In this document: in pieces, positions 11,991 through 18,105 of the stretch
Position numbering within the stretch: the stretch's first letter is position 1
Layout of the letters: each line of letters starts with the position of its first letter
Assembly (NCBI GenBank): GCA_022009835.1
Contig: CP091726.1
Location: 1,163,678-1,195,677, forward strand
Source: Bacilli bacterium
GTDB taxonomy: Bacteria; Bacillota_I; Bacilli_A; RF39; UBA660
Length of the DNA: 32,000 bases
Direction of reading: 5' to 3'
The notes under the pieces: model-generated
Told to the model about the DNA's origin: nothing
Seen by the model: only the letters and a program-made list of their open reading frames with translations
The model's database searches: none
Translations under genes and position numbers: made by a program

Positions 11991-12389
11991 TCAAATTCGT
12001 GCAACTAATGAGAATACTTCTTCGCTTATCTTATCTTTATTTATTTCATTTGCAGTAACAAGTATTACACAATTTTTTTTAGGTAATTCAAATGTAGATA
12101 TTTTTCCTATGTTCTAATAATTCGCAAAAACTTTAATTGCTCCTCTTTAGAAATCGAATCAATTTTATCAATTACTAATATTCTACTGGCGTTTGTACTT
12201 AATATTTCATTAAGCCATTTAGGAGGCATAAAATCTGTCCCATCATAATGACCATTTAATTCCTTAACATCAATGTTAGCAGGTAATACAACTGCTCCAT
12301 TTAAGTCTTTACCAGATATAAAATCAACTAATACAGGTGCAACATTTGCTTTAATATATGATAATAATATTTCTTTCTTGTTTTTCCAT
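11991..12389 (-). CDS. small Walker-A-less AAA-like protein (~132 aa); cassette gene D
   Basis: ATG at 12389..12387 overlaps the gene C stop (TAATG). After correcting three +1 breaks in 5-nt homopolymers the product reads 'MENKKEILLSYIKANVAPVLV...MPPKWLNEILSTNASRILVIDKIDSISKEEQLKFCELLEHRKISTFELPKNCVILVTAN...'. This aligns with the Walker-B-to-sensor-1 half of genes A-C but lacks a P-loop. Confidence 0.5.
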
Positions 12390-14313
12390 TATCTTCTTAT
12401 ACCTCCTCCAGGCATTTCAGCAAGTTTTGCTTCTGCAAGTCTTTCTAACTTACTTTCATCGCCATGTGTCCATAAAGCATCAAAAATTGCTCCAAACTCT
12501 GCTCCTAAACCTGCAACAAAGCCTCTTACTTTTTCTAGGTTAGTGTCATCTACTTGTGATAATCCAATAGTTGTTGCATATCTTTCAGCAGTATTTAATG
12601 CCTGTATATCTCTATCGGTATAATTCCCATTTATTACATCATCTAATGTTATAACTTGTTGATTACAGAACTCAACAAATTCTCTTGTTATATCTTCACC
12701 TACTAATGCCCTTAACATTTCTGGACTTCCTGTTGCATAAAGCATTTTAGAAGCCATTTCCCACTTTCTAGGATCAGCATTAGGTTTCTCACCATCATAC
12801 TTACTACGGAGTGTTTCACCCTTCTTATAAGCAATATAAGAATAAATTGCTGGATGTATATTATGTTCACTTGCCCACTTTAACCAACTTTCAGTAGTTG
12901 TTTTAATATAAACATGAGCAAATCTATTAAATAATGGTTCTGCCAATTGATTTGCAGCTAGACTATCTTTCATATCATTTCCTGCTGCTACAATTCTAGC
13001 ATTTTCTGGTAATTTCCAAATACCATTTACTTCTCTATCTAAAACTATATTAAACGCTATACCTTGAATACTTGGTAGTGCATTTGTTATTTCATCAAAG
13101 AATACTACATGAAGTCTATCTGGTTCCTTTTCACATTTTTCTTGTAATTTCTTAAGCCATGTTGGTGGAACATCCATCATTTCTCCTGTTGATCCATTAT
13201 ATACACTTTTACCATTTAAACTTTCTGGTGTCGCATTACGAAGATATATTATTTCGCAAGTAGGATCTATTTGTTTTACTCTTGCAGACTTACCTTCTGA
13301 TGAAGGTCCATGTAAGAATACTGCAACACCGCTTTCTATTGCTCCTTTAATAATTTCTTCTTCACTAACTTGTCCAAATTTCAAACCATAAGGATTTCTT
13401 CTTTTTTCAACTTGTTTTCTTTTTTCTTCAAACCTTTCTTTTTCTTCTGGAGTCATATCTTGAACACGAGTAAATGTTGCTGTCTGAGTTAAATCATGTA
13501 TCATATATCTATCAAGATATTCCTTCATTTCTGTTCTACTAAAATCACCTTTATAATTAGTTCTTTTATCAAGAAATCTTATTCCAGAAACTAATCCCAT
13601 TTTTGAAATTAATATTCTTGCTCTATCATCAATTAACCATTTTACTGGTGATACTTCTACCCAAACATAATCACCATTTCTATATTCAACTCCATTTGAA
13701 AGTTTAAATTTACCTCCTTCAAAATCAGAGTTTGCTCTTATACGAATATATTTCTTTCCTTGATATTCATATTCTTCATAAGCTACTGGTTTAAACCCAG
13801 TATCATAATCATCGTACTTTACTGAATCAAAAGTATAACTTCTTCCTGTTTTATTCATGCCTCTATTATATTCCGATTCTAATATACTTTGCATTCTTGA
13901 ATCAGCAGCATATTGAGGATATTCTCCATACTCTACTTCTTCTGTTCCATTGTATCCCCTCACTCTGTTCGGGGAGATTTGGAAAAGATTACAGAAGATT
14001 GCAAAGCTGGGCGAACAGCACCATTACGTAAATACCTATATCTGAGGAACCTATTACCATTCAAATTGACCCCGCAGACATCATTATCGTCATCATCAGA
14101 TCTAGTCCAAAACCAACCAGTTCTTCCTTTTAACGAACTATCTTCATCAATATTAAAATCTGTATCTTCGATTAAATAACTACCTGTTAATACGCATAAA
14201 TCTGTAATTGCAGCTTTTGTTCCATATTTTTTTATTACTTCTAATTGAGGTTCACTACTGTTTCCCCAAATTTGTCCTTCAGAAAGTAATGTTAATTCTA
14301 CATCTTTATTCAT
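12389..14313 (-). CDS. DUF6273-like x2 / MoxR(AAA_5)-type ATPase fusion; paralog C (ORFs 13960..14313 and 12389..13963)
   Basis: Walker A 'GPSSEGKS', Walker B 'VVFFDEI', sensor-1 'IVAAGN' and 'PLFNRFAHVYI'. The N-terminal ORF joins the 524-aa ORF through a single 1-nt indel near 13960..13975. Compare the uninterrupted paralog B: 'IFSKIFSNKMREFNGAEEVEYGEYPQ'. Confidence 0.8.
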
Positions 14314-16212: not shown

Positions 16213-18105
16213 TTTATCACCTTAACTTTTCCCCTAGTTAATTTTGCTTCAGCAATTAATTCAAGTCTTCTTTCATCACCATGACACCATTGTAAGTCAA
16301 ATAAAGTGCAATACTCTTCCCCAAGTACAGACATAATAAAATCTCTTACCTTTATTAAATTATCTTCATCTACTTGTGTTAATCCTATAATTATCGCATA
16401 TTTTTTTGGCTGTATTTAATGAATGCATATCATCAATCGTATAATTATCATCTAAAACATCTTCGAGTGTAATTACTTTTTGATTACAAAATACTGCAAA
16501 CTCTTTTGTTATATCTTCTCCTACTAGACTTCTAAGCATTTCTGGATTACCCGCCTTATAAAGCATTTTTGATGCCATTTCCCATTTTCTCGGATCAGCA
16601 TTTGGTTTTTCTCCATTATATTCACTTCTTAAGGCTTTTTCTCCTTTAAATGCGATGTAAGCATAAATTGCTGGATGAATATTATTTTCGCTTGCCCATT
16701 TTAGCCAATTTTCAGTTGTTGTTTTTATGTAGACATGAGCAAATCTATTAAATAAAGGCTCGGCTAGTTGATTTGCAGCTAACGAATCTTTCATATCATT
16801 ACCTGCTGCTACTATTCTAGCATTATCTGGTAATTTCCATATACCATTTACTTCTCTATCTAATACTATATTAAAGGCTATACCCTGAATACTTGGTAAA
16901 GCATTTGTTATCTCATCAAAGAATACTATGTGTAGTTTATCTGGCTCACTTGTACATTTTTCTTCTATCTTTTTAAGCCAAGAAGGTTTAATATCTATCA
17001 TTTCACCTGTACTTTGATTATAGACACTTTTACCATTTAAACTTTCAGGTGTTGCATTTCTTAAATATATTATTTCACAATTAGGATCTATTTGCTTAAC
17101 TCTAGCAGATTTACCTTCACTAGATGGTCCATGTAAGAATACAGCAACACCACTTTCTATTGCACCTTTAATAATATCCTCTTCACTTACTTCAGTAAAA
17201 TCTAAATTATAAGGATTTTTCTTCAAAGTAGGTCGCTTAACTCTTGTTTCTTTAACTTCTTCTTTTACTTCTTCCACTTTAATAGTTAAAGGTATTTTTA
17301 AATCTGAAATAATATCTGGTAAAAAATAGTTCTTCATAAACATCTTAATATCAGTTTCTTCAAAACTTTCAATACTAGTATCATAATGTGCAAATTGTAT
17401 ACCTGAAAATAATATTCTCTCTGAAATAGCAACATCTGCTTTAACATCTACTAACCAAGTTATTGGCTCAACTTTTATCCAGTATCCAGTTTTAGCCAAC
17501 ACTGTAGAAGAATTGGATAATGTACTGCCTACTGTTCCAACATCTCCTACAACTCTAACATATCTATTTCCATTATATTCATATACATAGTGCTCCTTTG
17601 CTTTAAAGAAACTATCTTCATCTTCTGTAGAAATAGAATCTGTTGTATATTTACCTACAATTTTTAATTTTCCTTTAGAAAATTCATTTTCTAATATGCT
17701 AGATATAACATTAGATGCTGCCATTTGGGGATACATTCCAAAATTAACAGAAATAACTCCATTTTCTAATGAATGATCATTTTCAGTAAATGATTTTATA
17801 CTTAAATATGGTAAAACTACTCTAGAGCCATAAAATCTAAGCCAAGAGTAATCATCATAAGTCGCATCATAGCCATTTATAATTTTAATACGGTGAGTAT
17901 TAATTTCTGTAATTGTTTTAGTCCAATAATACCCTTTATTATATGAAAAAGTAGTAGAATCATCAAAAGGAAGTTCTGTAATTCCACCTAATAAAATAGC
18001 AAAATCACTTATTTCTGCATGTATATGATCAAATTCAAATATCTTCAATCTATTTTCTCCATATATTTGTTCCTCAGTTAAAAAAGTTATATCATCTTTA
18101 TTCAT
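16209..18105 (-). CDS. DUF6273-like x2 / MoxR(AAA_5)-type ATPase fusion; paralog A, with a divergent N-terminal module
   Basis: Start ATG at 18105..18103 follows GGGGGAAG, giving 'MNKDDITFLTEEQIYG' in parallel with B and C. The 597-aa ORF ends early at the T7 run 16401..16407. One nucleotide fewer restores a C-terminus collinear with paralog B ('...GEEYCTLFDLQWCHGDERRLELIAEAKL'), stopping at 16209..16211. Confidence 0.8.

Follow-up and report, generated by a model that had tools for sequence, protein, structure and literature searches.

Tandem multigene families are known to evolve concertedly, by gene conversion and unequal crossing-over. Among AAA+ ATPases, NorQ and CbbQ serve as chaperones in maturation or reactivation, together with VWA adaptors (PMC9976466, PMC13036017). 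MoxR-vWA ternary conflict systems and DGR-diversified sensors have been described by Kaur et al. 2020 (PMC7159879) and Dore et al. 2024 (PMC10907252), and the latter also cites CLec-AAA fusions that are targeted by DGRs in CPR bacteria; midasin-like AAA proteins appear in PMC5758913. DGR targets with DUF6273 or C-type-lectin-like domains comprise phage tentaclins and Mtd-like proteins (PMC10743442, bioRxiv 10.1101/2024.10.15.618418). The array described here, found in a 32-kb window (the whole stretch of DNA that was analysed), joins themes known from MoxR/VWA systems, from DGR targets and from tandem families that recombine. Taken as a whole, the locus is likely to be a recombining sensor-ATPase array that heads a five-gene operon and couples a DGR-linked module to a MoxR-like machine.

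The resemblances are as follows. As in NorQ/NorD, CbbQ/CbbO and RavA/ViaA, an AAA+ core with Walker A and Walker B motifs is encoded in the same operon as a VWA-like protein, and as in the MoxR-vWA ternary systems, a MoxR-type ATPase, a vWA protein, a third component and a peptidase domain occur together. The coupling of a retroelement-diversified binding domain to an NTPase recalls the DGR-diversified MoxR-vWA sensors. With the DUF6273 and C-type-lectin DGR targets, the orthologues share adenine-specific differences between template and variable region and an adjacent reverse transcriptase and Avd-like gene, and the variable region, a predicted beta-hairpin and loop, lies where the protein matches the C-terminal end of DUF6273. 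Mosaic tracts, tract polymorphism among strains and copy-number change via hybrid genes are shared with families under concerted evolution.

Layout of the array and its reading frames

The block and its flanks consist of the following features, given in window coordinates.

18195..18494, plus strand: upstream copy of a 300-bp direct repeat, with a gerAA-like promoter and the first ~81 codons, running on into the gene
18131..18159, minus strand: promoter-like site upstream of copy A (TTGCAA, 17 nt spacer, TG-TATAAT), a consensus match only
16213..18105, minus strand: copy A, an A-type N-terminal module with a MoxR-class ATPase, 631 aa once repaired
14310..16212, minus strand: copy B, a C-like N-terminal module with a B/A-type ATPase tail, 630 aa in relatives
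12389..14313, minus strand: copy C, the conserved, ancestral operon copy, 641 aa once repaired
11991..12389, minus strand: 130-aa gene, a degenerate and catalytically dead version of the alpha/beta core of the ATPase, frameshifted in the window
10453..11980, minus strand: gene with DUF2201_N (zincin-like, HExxH) and DUF2201 (VWA-like) domains, 500 aa in relatives, split by frameshifts in the window
10132..10430, plus strand: downstream copy of the 300-bp direct repeat, 98% identical, a truncated 5' fragment of gerAA

The three minus-strand units, each of ~1.9 kb, are spaced by 1921 and 1900 nt within the repeat family, in agreement with the offsets given in the original prediction made from the sequence of this DNA. 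Each copy is a fusion of a MoxR-class AAA+ ATPase with a two-part N-terminal module of ~260 aa, and homologous loci hold one to five ATPase copies in tandem, with the C-type as the sole copy in most related genomes. Because A and B, as well as B and C, overlap by ATGA, the five genes look like one operon, and the entire five-gene block is flanked by the two copies of the 300-bp repeat. GerA in the conspecific assembly L081 is 480 aa long.

None of the three copies has an intact reading frame in the window, a feature that the original prediction had missed. The reading frame of copy A stops at 16366 due to an extra A in a homopolymer at ~16407, seven insertions in homopolymers between 15383 and 15521 break copy B into 15514-16212 and 14310-15305, and copy C contains a 1-nt deletion at 13981. 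Such disruptions, together with those in the 130-aa gene and the DUF2201 gene and the paucity of long ORFs across the whole window, would be expected if the genome were degenerating and the array consisted of pseudogenes in decay. This explanation is nevertheless very unlikely, as 73 of the 95 indels that separate the window from the 97.9% identical contig L002 are insertions that lengthen A/T homopolymers in the window and strike flanking housekeeping genes as well, every gene is intact in six other assemblies of the same species (copies of 631, 630 and 641 aa), and dN/dS in the ATPase cores (0.04-0.36) indicates purifying selection. In L002, intact orthologues of copy A (631 aa) and copy B occupy positions 153-2048 and 2045-3937, respectively, while copy C is 99% identical to the intact 641-aa protein P0001. 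Since the genes of relatives are intact, the frame breaks are probably homopolymer over-calls, and the apparent pseudogenes of the window, whose quality is poor for indels, are probably sequencing errors, which calls for caution in their annotation.

Recombination among the three copies

The comparison of the copies refers to the following segments.

12905..13399, minus strand: AAA+ alpha/beta core of copy C, residues 306-470, with Walker A GPSSEGKS and Walker B VVFFDE
~16726-17220 and ~14826-15320, minus strand: segments of copies A and B, respectively, that correspond to the copy C core
14883..15195, minus strand: mosaic zone in the 5' (P-loop) half of the copy B ATPase, with alternating A-like and C-like blocks

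The three copies exchange sequence with one another by recombination. Both identity tracts named in the original prediction are present exactly: B 14886-14998 equals A 16786-16898 over 113 nt, in which C is mismatched at 7 positions, and B 14987-15064 equals C 13066-13143 over 78 nt, in which A is mismatched at 12 positions. The predicted return to an A-like stretch of ~40 nt followed by a C-like one was also recovered from the informative sites, with an A-like block at 15096-15065 (11 sites) and a C-like block at 15123-15105 (7 sites). This alternation is not random, as the 5' core contains 19 runs among 74 informative sites (permutation p<=1e-5) and the PHI statistic for nine sequences was 0.070 against 0.118 +/- 0.004 in permuted data (p=2e-4).

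On a larger scale, the N-terminal part of B is C-like at 293 sites and A-like at 59, while its ATPase part is A-like at 157 sites and C-like at 61. The proposal that the modules differ is upheld, with B near C and A carrying a module of another type, and the sites agree with a C-like N-module and an A-like tail in B. The reading of B as a mosaic of A and C holds for the alternation and has to be revised for A as the source of the tail: the sister lineage L082 has a B-type and a C-type copy without A, so that the A-like tail of B is the old B-type tail. For copy A, a B-type motor that received a new N-module is the better reading.

The original prediction had also held that the ATPase cores are almost identical and that recombination homogenises the motor. 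Both statements apply to the P-loop half, which is 91-94% identical at the amino acid level among the window copies and in which dS between A and C drops to 0.41, compared with 1.3-1.4 elsewhere. They do not apply to the C-terminal half, where A and B are 88% identical and either is only 66-70% identical to C at the protein level. Here, the lid and C-terminal half fall into two deep types, orthologous across lineages and with 70-74% nucleotide identity between types. Calculated per domain, dN/dS is raised in the modules (0.25-0.9) yet never clearly above 1.

A simpler history would dispense with ongoing conversion and invoke one ancient unequal crossover, with core similarity maintained by purifying selection alone. 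The macro-structure of B, C-like in its 5' part and A-like in its 3' part, indeed fits one such event, and since the core protein is nearly invariant even in homologues ~50% identical overall, much of its similarity can be ascribed to plain purifying selection. We consider this history improbable: the 5' core contains at least six alternating blocks instead of one breakpoint, exact identity over 78-113 nt extends to synonymous sites, and the dip in A/C dS is confined to the 5' core, whereas dS between orthologues is uniform (0.25-0.46) and shows no dip there. In addition, the N1 modules of the L082 paralogues are 91.8% alike, as compared to 77-88% to orthologues, and tracts and copy number vary among strains that are 97-99% identical.

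Such variation was observed in comparison assemblies that are short-read metagenomes. L003 and L001 carry the tracts of the window, with the B mosaic reproduced in L003 and its tail variant in L001, and an alternative B haplotype is common to L002 and L005. Individual tracts also differ from one conspecific assembly to another: copies A and B of L002 contain C-like tracts of 24 and 12 sites, respectively, that are absent from the window. Two or three copies are present per strain; in the two-copy array of L081, the first gene is an A/B recombinant with the N-terminus of A and a B-like 3' core (98% amino acid identity).

Some strain-specific tracts, especially those of L002, could be assembly chimeras. 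That the mosaic and the strain differences as a whole are chimeras between near-identical repeats would be in line with the systematic indel errors of the window, the short-read origin of the other contigs and the identity of A and B in L002 across ~500 nt of core, a typical place for a mis-join. This general explanation is extremely unlikely, as the B mosaic and its tail variant recur in other samples processed with other assemblers, the alternative B haplotype was recovered in both L002 and L005, identity tracts in the window do not exceed 113 nt and are bounded by differing sequence on either side, and the two-copy contig of L081 runs into unique sequence at either end of the array. The originally proposed exchange between copies, through repeated gene conversion or recombination, is therefore sustained by the non-random mosaic, the presence of tracts in independent assemblies and the polymorphism in tracts and copy number.

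Motor, operon partners and the diversified module

Across 38 homologues, G336, S338, G341, K342, S343, F405, E408, N446 and R464 are invariant, and Walker A (GxxxxGK[ST]), Walker B (hhhhDE) and the conserved arginines of AAA+ proteins are all present. Foldseek against the PDB placed NorQ (9qhg, 9qh4; E 6e-10 to 1e-8, probability 1.0) and CbbQ (6l1q) among the top matches, and tblastn revealed 27-30% identity to annotated MoxR ATPases. At the level of profiles, Pfam AAA_5 (PF07728) remained below threshold, with sub-threshold matches in 13 of the 38 members (best E 0.0013, at most 19 bits against a cut-off of 22), and the window copies gave only a weak match to PF00004.

Downstream of the array, the 130-aa gene product aligned with residues 320-467 of the ATPase family, without Walker A, in hhalign (probability 90.7%, E 1.2e-6), and the intact DUF2201 protein of L002 matched PF13203 (E 2.8e-36) and PF09967 (E 1.5e-13). 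The VWA-like DUF2201 domain (E 1e-14 to 1e-13) is encoded in the same operon in Bacilli-type loci for which downstream sequence is available; Clostridia-type loci retain the DUF2201 partner and lack the 130-aa gene. The operon is widespread (609 representatives at E<=1e-30), its hosts being small-genome gut Bacilli or 'Tenericutes'-like lineages and some Clostridia.

The N-terminal module of the family contains a hypervariable segment of ~20 residues, predicted to be a beta-hairpin and loop, with the following counterparts in the window.

14007..14079, minus strand: variable region of copy C, DGR-type, residues ~79-102, frozen in this species
15915..15987, minus strand: corresponding stretch in copy B, where the variable region has decayed

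Among orthologues of copy C, entropy peaks at residues 81-100 of the module, and nucleotide variation across 33 copies falls on the positions of template adenines. In sister species, a DGR (Avd, template repeat and reverse transcriptase) lies directly upstream, the template repeat being located ~1.58 kb upstream in relatives. At L006, template repeat (~6618-6692) and variable region (8232-8305) differ by 11 mismatches, all at template adenines. The reverse transcriptase of relatives (353 aa; PF00078 E 1e-16; YMDD and LGNQSSQ motifs) is complete or near-complete in 13 loci and left as remnants in 6, and their bAvd-like protein gives a sub-threshold match (E 1.4e-5). The proposal of a diversifying receptor family thus gains a concrete basis, as residues 81-100 of the C orthologues are a DGR variable region.

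Compared with the L006 template, the copy C variable region is mismatched at 9 adenines of the template and at 3 other positions, and the copy B segment at 11 adenines and 18 non-adenine positions; the adenine pattern persists in C and is lost in B. Neither a template repeat nor a reverse transcriptase was found in the 32-kb window, the best match to the template consensus being the variable region of C itself (84%). This region is identical in the window and L002-L005, one codon apart in L001 and different at three positions in L081. The presence of several copies is not significantly tied to absence of the retroelement (reverse transcriptase in 1 of 6 multi-copy and 15 of 44 single-copy loci). 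Pfam DUF6273 is matched at profile positions ~113-168 only, a motif of ~45 residues that exceeds the threshold in L063 and P0127 alone, and a model of the module (pLDDT 93) yielded no Foldseek match in PDB or BFVD at E<0.03. The module family tends toward tandem arrays and shuffling; its stand-alone relatives form arrays of ten or more paralogues beside ankyrin and caspase-like genes. Since a retroelement hypermutates the same binding module in sister species, the array, in which a variable binding module is joined to a MoxR-type motor, looks like a diversifying sensor family.

Alternatively, the system could be a dedicated maturation chaperone of the NorQ/NorD or CbbQ/CbbO kind and no conflict sensor, with the extra copies adapting it to several substrates. 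The nearest solved structures, NorQ and CbbQ, are VWA-adaptor chaperones (PMC9976466, PMC13036017), the locus is chromosomal and lies among sporulation and germination genes, and known defence systems gave no match, as PADLOC v2 assigned none of the five proteins to a defence-system family; NCBIfam and PDB sequence searches were also without a match. Overall, a dedicated chaperone appears unlikely. Hypermutation of the module in sister species typifies ligand binders with variable partners and is ill-suited to a single fixed substrate, the arrays of stand-alone modules beside ankyrin and caspase-like genes point the same way, the genomic site of the operon differs from species to species, and the partner bears a predicted zincin peptidase. 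The sensor-like array may plausibly have a role in biological conflict.

Proposed explanation and comparison with known systems

We propose that copy A arose by fusion of a foreign N-module to a B-type motor and was added to an old array of two genes, one B-type and one C-type. Short conversion tracts are concentrated in the P-loop half of the motor, and unequal crossing-over alters the copy number, with two or three copies per strain and the A/B hybrid in one two-copy strain. Conversion may keep the ring-forming motor halves compatible while the modules and the C-terminal helical halves remain distinct. The proteins probably form MoxR-like hexamers that would act together with the VWA-zincin partner, and the N-modules could serve as ligand sensors or substrate selectors. 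The N-termini, as translated, show no signal peptide when inspected by eye, and hence the protein is presumably cytoplasmic. A more far-reaching version can be put forward only tentatively: an undescribed, presumably cytoplasmic hypervariable sensor of gut Bacilli, built from a MoxR motor with a DGR-rewritten N-module, an effector with VWA and zincin domains and a motor subunit that is dead. In the lineage of this window, a repertoire of paralogues with different modules would have replaced the retroelement, and conversion confined to the ring half would preserve co-assembly.

If true, one bacterial receptor system would use two alternative routes to diversity, a retroelement or a germline repertoire of paralogues, and, should the array indeed act as a sensor, these gut Bacilli with small genomes would possess a hypervariable system for recognition inside the cell. 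Because strains that are so closely related differ in tracts and copy number, the array provides a clean natural case in which conversion and unequal crossing-over have remodelled a multigene family of bacteria inside one species, with homogenisation restricted to one sub-domain. An uncharacterised, widespread operon is now tied to MoxR/VWA remodelling machines and DGR-diversified binding domains, and experiments could start from the loop of the variable region, the modules of the paralogues or the partner with zincin and VWA domains.

Several features set this locus apart from the systems it resembles. In comparison to the NorQ/CbbQ/RavA class, the ATPase carries the ~260-aa N-module without a fold match and a long C-terminal helical domain, does not reach the AAA_5 Pfam threshold and occurs in one to five tandem copies; its VWA partner is fused to the zincin-like DUF2201_N domain, and a dead mini-copy of the ATPase core is the third component. 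Unlike phage tentaclins and Mtd-like proteins, the presumed cytoplasmic ATPase fusion is neither a phage tail nor a surface protein, and in contrast to DUF6273 and C-type-lectin targets, a C-type lectin fold is not confirmed for its module by Foldseek; with template repeat and reverse transcriptase absent from the window, the variable region is static here. No VMAP, iSTAND, FtsH or beta-propeller component was identified by Pfam or NCBIfam, the set of models searched containing none for VMAP. In contrast to the MoxR-vWA ternary systems, the diversified domain is located N-terminally on the ATPase itself and not on the vWA protein, and the hosts are neither multicellular cyanobacteria or actinobacteria nor CPR. 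As compared to families under concerted evolution, homogenisation is confined to half of one domain; two ancient types persist in the C-terminal half, and the N-modules of this species remain unlike one another. Finally, relative to the DGR-diversified sensors, multiplication of paralogues and conversion among them would occupy in this species the place that the retroelement holds in its sister species.

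Recombination among the copies of a tandem ATPase array

The block consists of five genes, with a flanking repeat and a relic beyond it, as follows (positions in the window).

16213-18105, minus strand, ATPase gene A
14310-16212, minus strand, ATPase gene B
12389-14313, minus strand, ATPase gene C
11991-12389, minus strand, gene for a 130-aa protein
10453-11980, DUF2201 gene encoding a zincin-VWA protein
10132-10430 and 18195-18494, 300-bp direct repeat, 98% identical, bracketing the whole five-gene block
ca. 9300-9490, minus strand, relic of a second DUF2201 gene, near tRNA-His (9185-9260)

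Three head-to-tail units with a repeat-family spacing of 1921 and 1900 nt constitute the array, and a three-way alignment places A, B and C in register from start codons to stops. An ATGA overlap is present at A/B and at B/C, the stop of C abuts the next gene, and a consensus-like promoter is found 5' of A by pattern match only. All three copies and the two downstream genes are frame-disrupted in the window. Comparison with L002, a human-gut metagenome scaffold of the same species, revealed 97.9% identity over 15.7 kb with 188 substitutions and 95 indels, of which 73 are window insertions lengthening A or T homopolymers (comparable stretch 2515-18257). Such insertions also occur in unrelated flanking genes, including housekeeping ones, and most window ORFs are broken, which gives the window the appearance of an error-prone assembly left uncorrected. 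Given this excess, and since the genes are intact in the conspecific loci L001-L005 and L081 (631, 630 and 641 aa, followed by 130 and 500 aa), the frameshifts are taken as technical and the gene models of the original prediction are correct once these are allowed for. The single deletion outside homopolymers in C, at 13981, could be a genuine mutation.

Both exact identity tracts claimed for B were recovered in the three-way alignment. B 14886-14998 equals A 16786-16898 over 113 nt, with C mismatched at 7 positions, and the overlapping B 14987-15064 equals C 13066-13143 over 78 nt, with A mismatched at 12 positions. The further A-like and C-like alternation in B is borne out by site patterns: in the N-terminal part 293 sites group B with C, 59 group B with A and 68 are of the AC type, and in the ATPase part 157 sites group B with A and 61 group B with C. 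The 5' half of the ATPase has 19 runs among 74 informative sites, and none of 100,000 permutations had as few. The PHI test on nine sequences (the three window copies, further ones from two conspecific assemblies, and a single orthologue) gave 0.070 as compared to a permuted 0.118 +/- 0.004 (p=2e-4). The runs test and PHI were used since a 3SEQ-like max-descent statistic, as implemented, is dominated by the base composition of site types and hence uninformative for sub-regions.

The comparison contigs are short-read metagenome assemblies and the window itself carries indel errors; the B mosaic of the window was found again in L003, and its variant of the B tail in L001, with the alternative tail common to L002, L004 and L005. 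Conspecific assemblies, 97-99% identical, differ in discrete tracts. A of L002 contains a 24-site C-like run absent from the window's A plus a B-like run, and B of L002 a 12-site C-like run absent from the window's B. L081 occupies the same genomic site as the window, preceded by the gerA operon and followed by the same genes, and contains only two copies, the first of which has the A-type N-terminal module and early core and is then B-like to its end (98% aa identity in the C-terminal half). Such a hybrid is the expected product of an unequal crossover between A and B. With a non-random mosaic, strain-specific tracts and this A/B hybrid, the copies have recombined with each other, as had been proposed from the array alone, and copy number has changed through hybrid genes. 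In L082, a sister-lineage locus whose downstream genes are the same, A is missing and the array consists of one B-type and one C-type copy.

Regions subject to conversion

The original prediction held that conversion homogenises the motor while the N-terminal modules diverge. Conversion is real, yet confined, as the divergence of individual domains reveals.

Table. Divergence among copies by domain (protein identity in the window; dS between A and C from the L002 genes)
P-loop half of ATPase: identity 91-94% for all pairs; dS 0.41
C-terminal half: identity 88% for A-B, 66-70% for A or B versus C; dS 1.41
N-terminal module: identity 30-37% for A-C; dS 0.8-1.3

The dip in dS in the P-loop half might have been caused by codon constraint; this was ruled out, as dS between C and its orthologue in the sister species L006 is flat at 0.25-0.46 across domains. 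Homogenisation by conversion hence stands for the P-loop half. It does not extend to the C-terminal half, in which two types, with 70-74% nucleotide identity between them, track gene position across lineages: type one comprises A, B and the first genes of L081 and L082, and type two comprises C, the second genes of L081 and L082 and the L006 orthologue. Moreover, the near-identity of the core protein is largely due to purifying selection, since the core is almost invariant across the whole family. In L082, the N1 parts of the module, which contain the variable region, are 91.8% identical in nucleotides to each other as compared to 77-88% to their respective orthologues, which indicates that conversion reaches the module as well in this lineage. 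N1 is the fastest-evolving part even between orthologues, with 77% aa identity versus 95-99% elsewhere and 89% in a short linker.

Retroelement targeting of the N-terminal module in relatives

A set of 120 protein clusters with at least 89% identity to C varies mainly at residues 81-100, where the entropy is 1.1-1.55 bits per block as compared to at most 0.44 elsewhere. Approximately 10 hypervariable positions are interspersed there with invariant ones, most of them carry the residue sets expected from NNY or NNG codons, and at the nucleotide level the variable positions are the adenines of a template repeat, which in L006, L012, L020, L036, L051 and L053 lies ca. 1.58 kb 5' of the variable region. 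In the sister species L006 the module is thus the target of a diversity-generating retroelement (DGR), whose order at 5325-8305 is a 162-aa gene, a bAvd-like gene, the template repeat (…GTCAATAAGAATGGTAATAGGAACAACAAATATAGGTATAAACGCAATGGTGCTGTTCGCCCAG), a reverse transcriptase of 353 aa (PF00078, E 1e-16; YMDD and LGNQSSQ motifs) and the ATPase gene. In L006 this complete DGR cassette lies directly upstream of a single-copy ATPase gene, and further loci with such a cassette are L012, L020, L025, L026, L028, L029, L032, L036, L041, L051 and L053. In 13 loci the ATPase gene is preceded by a complete or near-complete reverse-transcriptase match, and six others retain remnants of this enzyme only (L007, L011, L013, L015, L019 and L035). 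In the cassette loci the variable region sits towards the 5' end of the target gene, a rare position: 3 of 372 DGRs have theirs near the N-terminus (PMC5758913). A GC-rich hairpin 3' of the variable region, as needed by the Bordetella phage DGR, was unsupported (fold -6.3 kcal/mol, z-score 0.9).

No reverse transcriptase, Avd or template repeat was found in the window. The segment 14079-14007 of C retains the pattern (of its mismatches, 9 fall on template adenines and 3 on other positions), and the equivalent segment of B has 18 non-adenine mismatches. Between the window and L002-L005 the variable region of C does not vary; L001 has a one-codon difference and L081 differs at three positions. 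A family-wide replacement of the DGR by multi-copy arrays had no statistical support, a reverse transcriptase being found in 1 of 6 multi-copy and 15 of 44 single-copy loci. Two multi-copy loci have distinct layouts: in L030 (2666-14465) the operon is duplicated whole, with five ATPase copies each carrying a different adenine-patterned variable region, and L036 (7989-17439) has the DGR and four copies that share the same variable-region sequence, and three of the four are located downstream of the DUF2201 gene.

The variable segment is the part of N1 matching the C-terminal end of Pfam DUF6273, a family reported as C-type-lectin-like and as DGR-targeted in gut phages (PMC10743442; bioRxiv 10.1101/2024.10.15.618418), and is predicted to form a beta-hairpin plus loop. 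The model of an A-type module (pLDDT 93) had no significant match in fold searches against PDB and BFVD, and a C-type-lectin fold of the module could hence not be confirmed. Family-wide, N-terminal parts of the ATPase differ or are doubled, and relatives of the module are found either as stand-alone proteins of ca. 300 aa or in fusions with ankyrin repeats and with other domains. L084 (361-10954; also L085 and L086) encodes at least 10 tandem stand-alone paralogues of ca. 303-319 aa, 30-92% identical among themselves and 33-48% to the window's modules, which adjoin ankyrin-repeat genes, including one that encodes an ankyrin/N-module fusion, with a caspase-like peptidase C14 gene nearby. The distribution of A-type modules is under-sampled, since a word-indexed search with the module of A missed its own orthologue encoded in L002.

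Motor, partner genes and a model of the system

Over 75 related loci, the conserved unit is one ATPase gene, the 130-aa gene and a gene with DUF2201_N and DUF2201 domains. These loci belong to uncultured gut Bacilli or 'Tenericutes'-labelled MAGs, such as Clostridium sp. CAG:417, Coprobacillus sp. CAG:605 and Ca. Faecisoma. The ATPase is single-copy in most genomes, with two to five copies in scattered lineages. Operons of the Bacilli type retain the 130-aa gene, which is lacking in those of a more distant Clostridia group that includes Zhenpiania hominis. The 130-aa product (window 11991-12389, minus strand; L002 5859-6251) aligns to the alpha/beta core of the ATPase (hhalign probability 90.7%, E 1.2e-6), lacks the P-loop and has DK where the ATPase has DE, features that mark it as an old, dead duplicate of the motor. 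A split system is present in L087 (5104-8622), where the ATPase gene is divided into a 492-aa part (N-module and core) and a 108-aa part (C-terminal end); behind these come a dead-core gene of 129 aa and a DUF2201 gene of 410 aa.

The motor is a MoxR-class ATPase with a VWA-zincin partner. Its best structural matches, using an AlphaFold model of an intact C orthologue (pLDDT 79.6), are NorQ and CbbQ, both AAA+ proteins of the MoxR class that act with VWA partners, and it is 27-30% identical to annotated MoxR ATPases. Pfam AAA_5 matches were sub-threshold only; when proteins from the window or L002 were scanned directly with Pfam, NCBIfam and PADLOC, only a weak AAA match and the DUF2201 domains emerged, and PDB searches with single sequences and profiles gave no match. 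The 500-aa partner combines a zincin-like DUF2201_N and a VWA-like DUF2201 domain. Its Gln/Asn/Gly-rich linker is encoded by a 93-nt tandem duplication, 73% identical (window 11384-11569), the gene has a 21-nt insertion at ca. 11178 in the window relative to L002, and linker length varies widely among orthologues (proteins of 404-761 aa).

Concerning the genomic setting, synteny revealed no operon beside gerA or adh genes outside the window's species group, with the exception of a gerAA-like match upstream in L076. The 300-bp repeat comprises the promoter region and first ca. 81 codons of a gerAA-like germination gene; its upstream copy is followed by the rest of gerAA, the downstream one is only a truncated fragment, and this arrangement suggests segmental duplication or Campbell-type insertion at the site. 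The DUF2201 relic, with 81% protein identity to residues 403-445 of the functional copy and a weaker continuation to 475, points to an earlier whole-operon duplication followed by deletion. G+C is ca. 29-32% across the operon (window 11000-18000) versus ca. 22-25% in adjacent flanks; either a foreign origin or coding constraint on highly conserved genes might account for the difference. No match was obtained with phage DNA, and in phage and plasmid protein searches the ATPase part alone matched, at 25-30% identity.

We propose that the array would have started from an old pair of B-type and C-type copies, and that A may have formed by fusion of a foreign module with a B-type motor; between A and B, core dS is 0.13-0.19 and the modules are ca. 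28% identical. Conversion in the ring-forming half would then preserve co-assembly, with the modules acting as putative ligand sensors that feed a MoxR/VWA-zincin output. As to function, which we infer, a possible role in biological conflict would follow the precedent of MoxR-vWA systems whose sensors are diversified by DGRs (PMC7159879, PMC10907252), and a dedicated-chaperone role is a live rival to it. In the literature consulted, no description of the five-gene operon was found, nor anything on a DGR-targeted module carried by the MoxR ATPase itself, a dead-core third gene or a paralogue array occupying the retroelement's place. Already known are MoxR/VWA pairs, concerted evolution of tandem families, and DGR targets, some of them AAA fusions in CPR bacteria.
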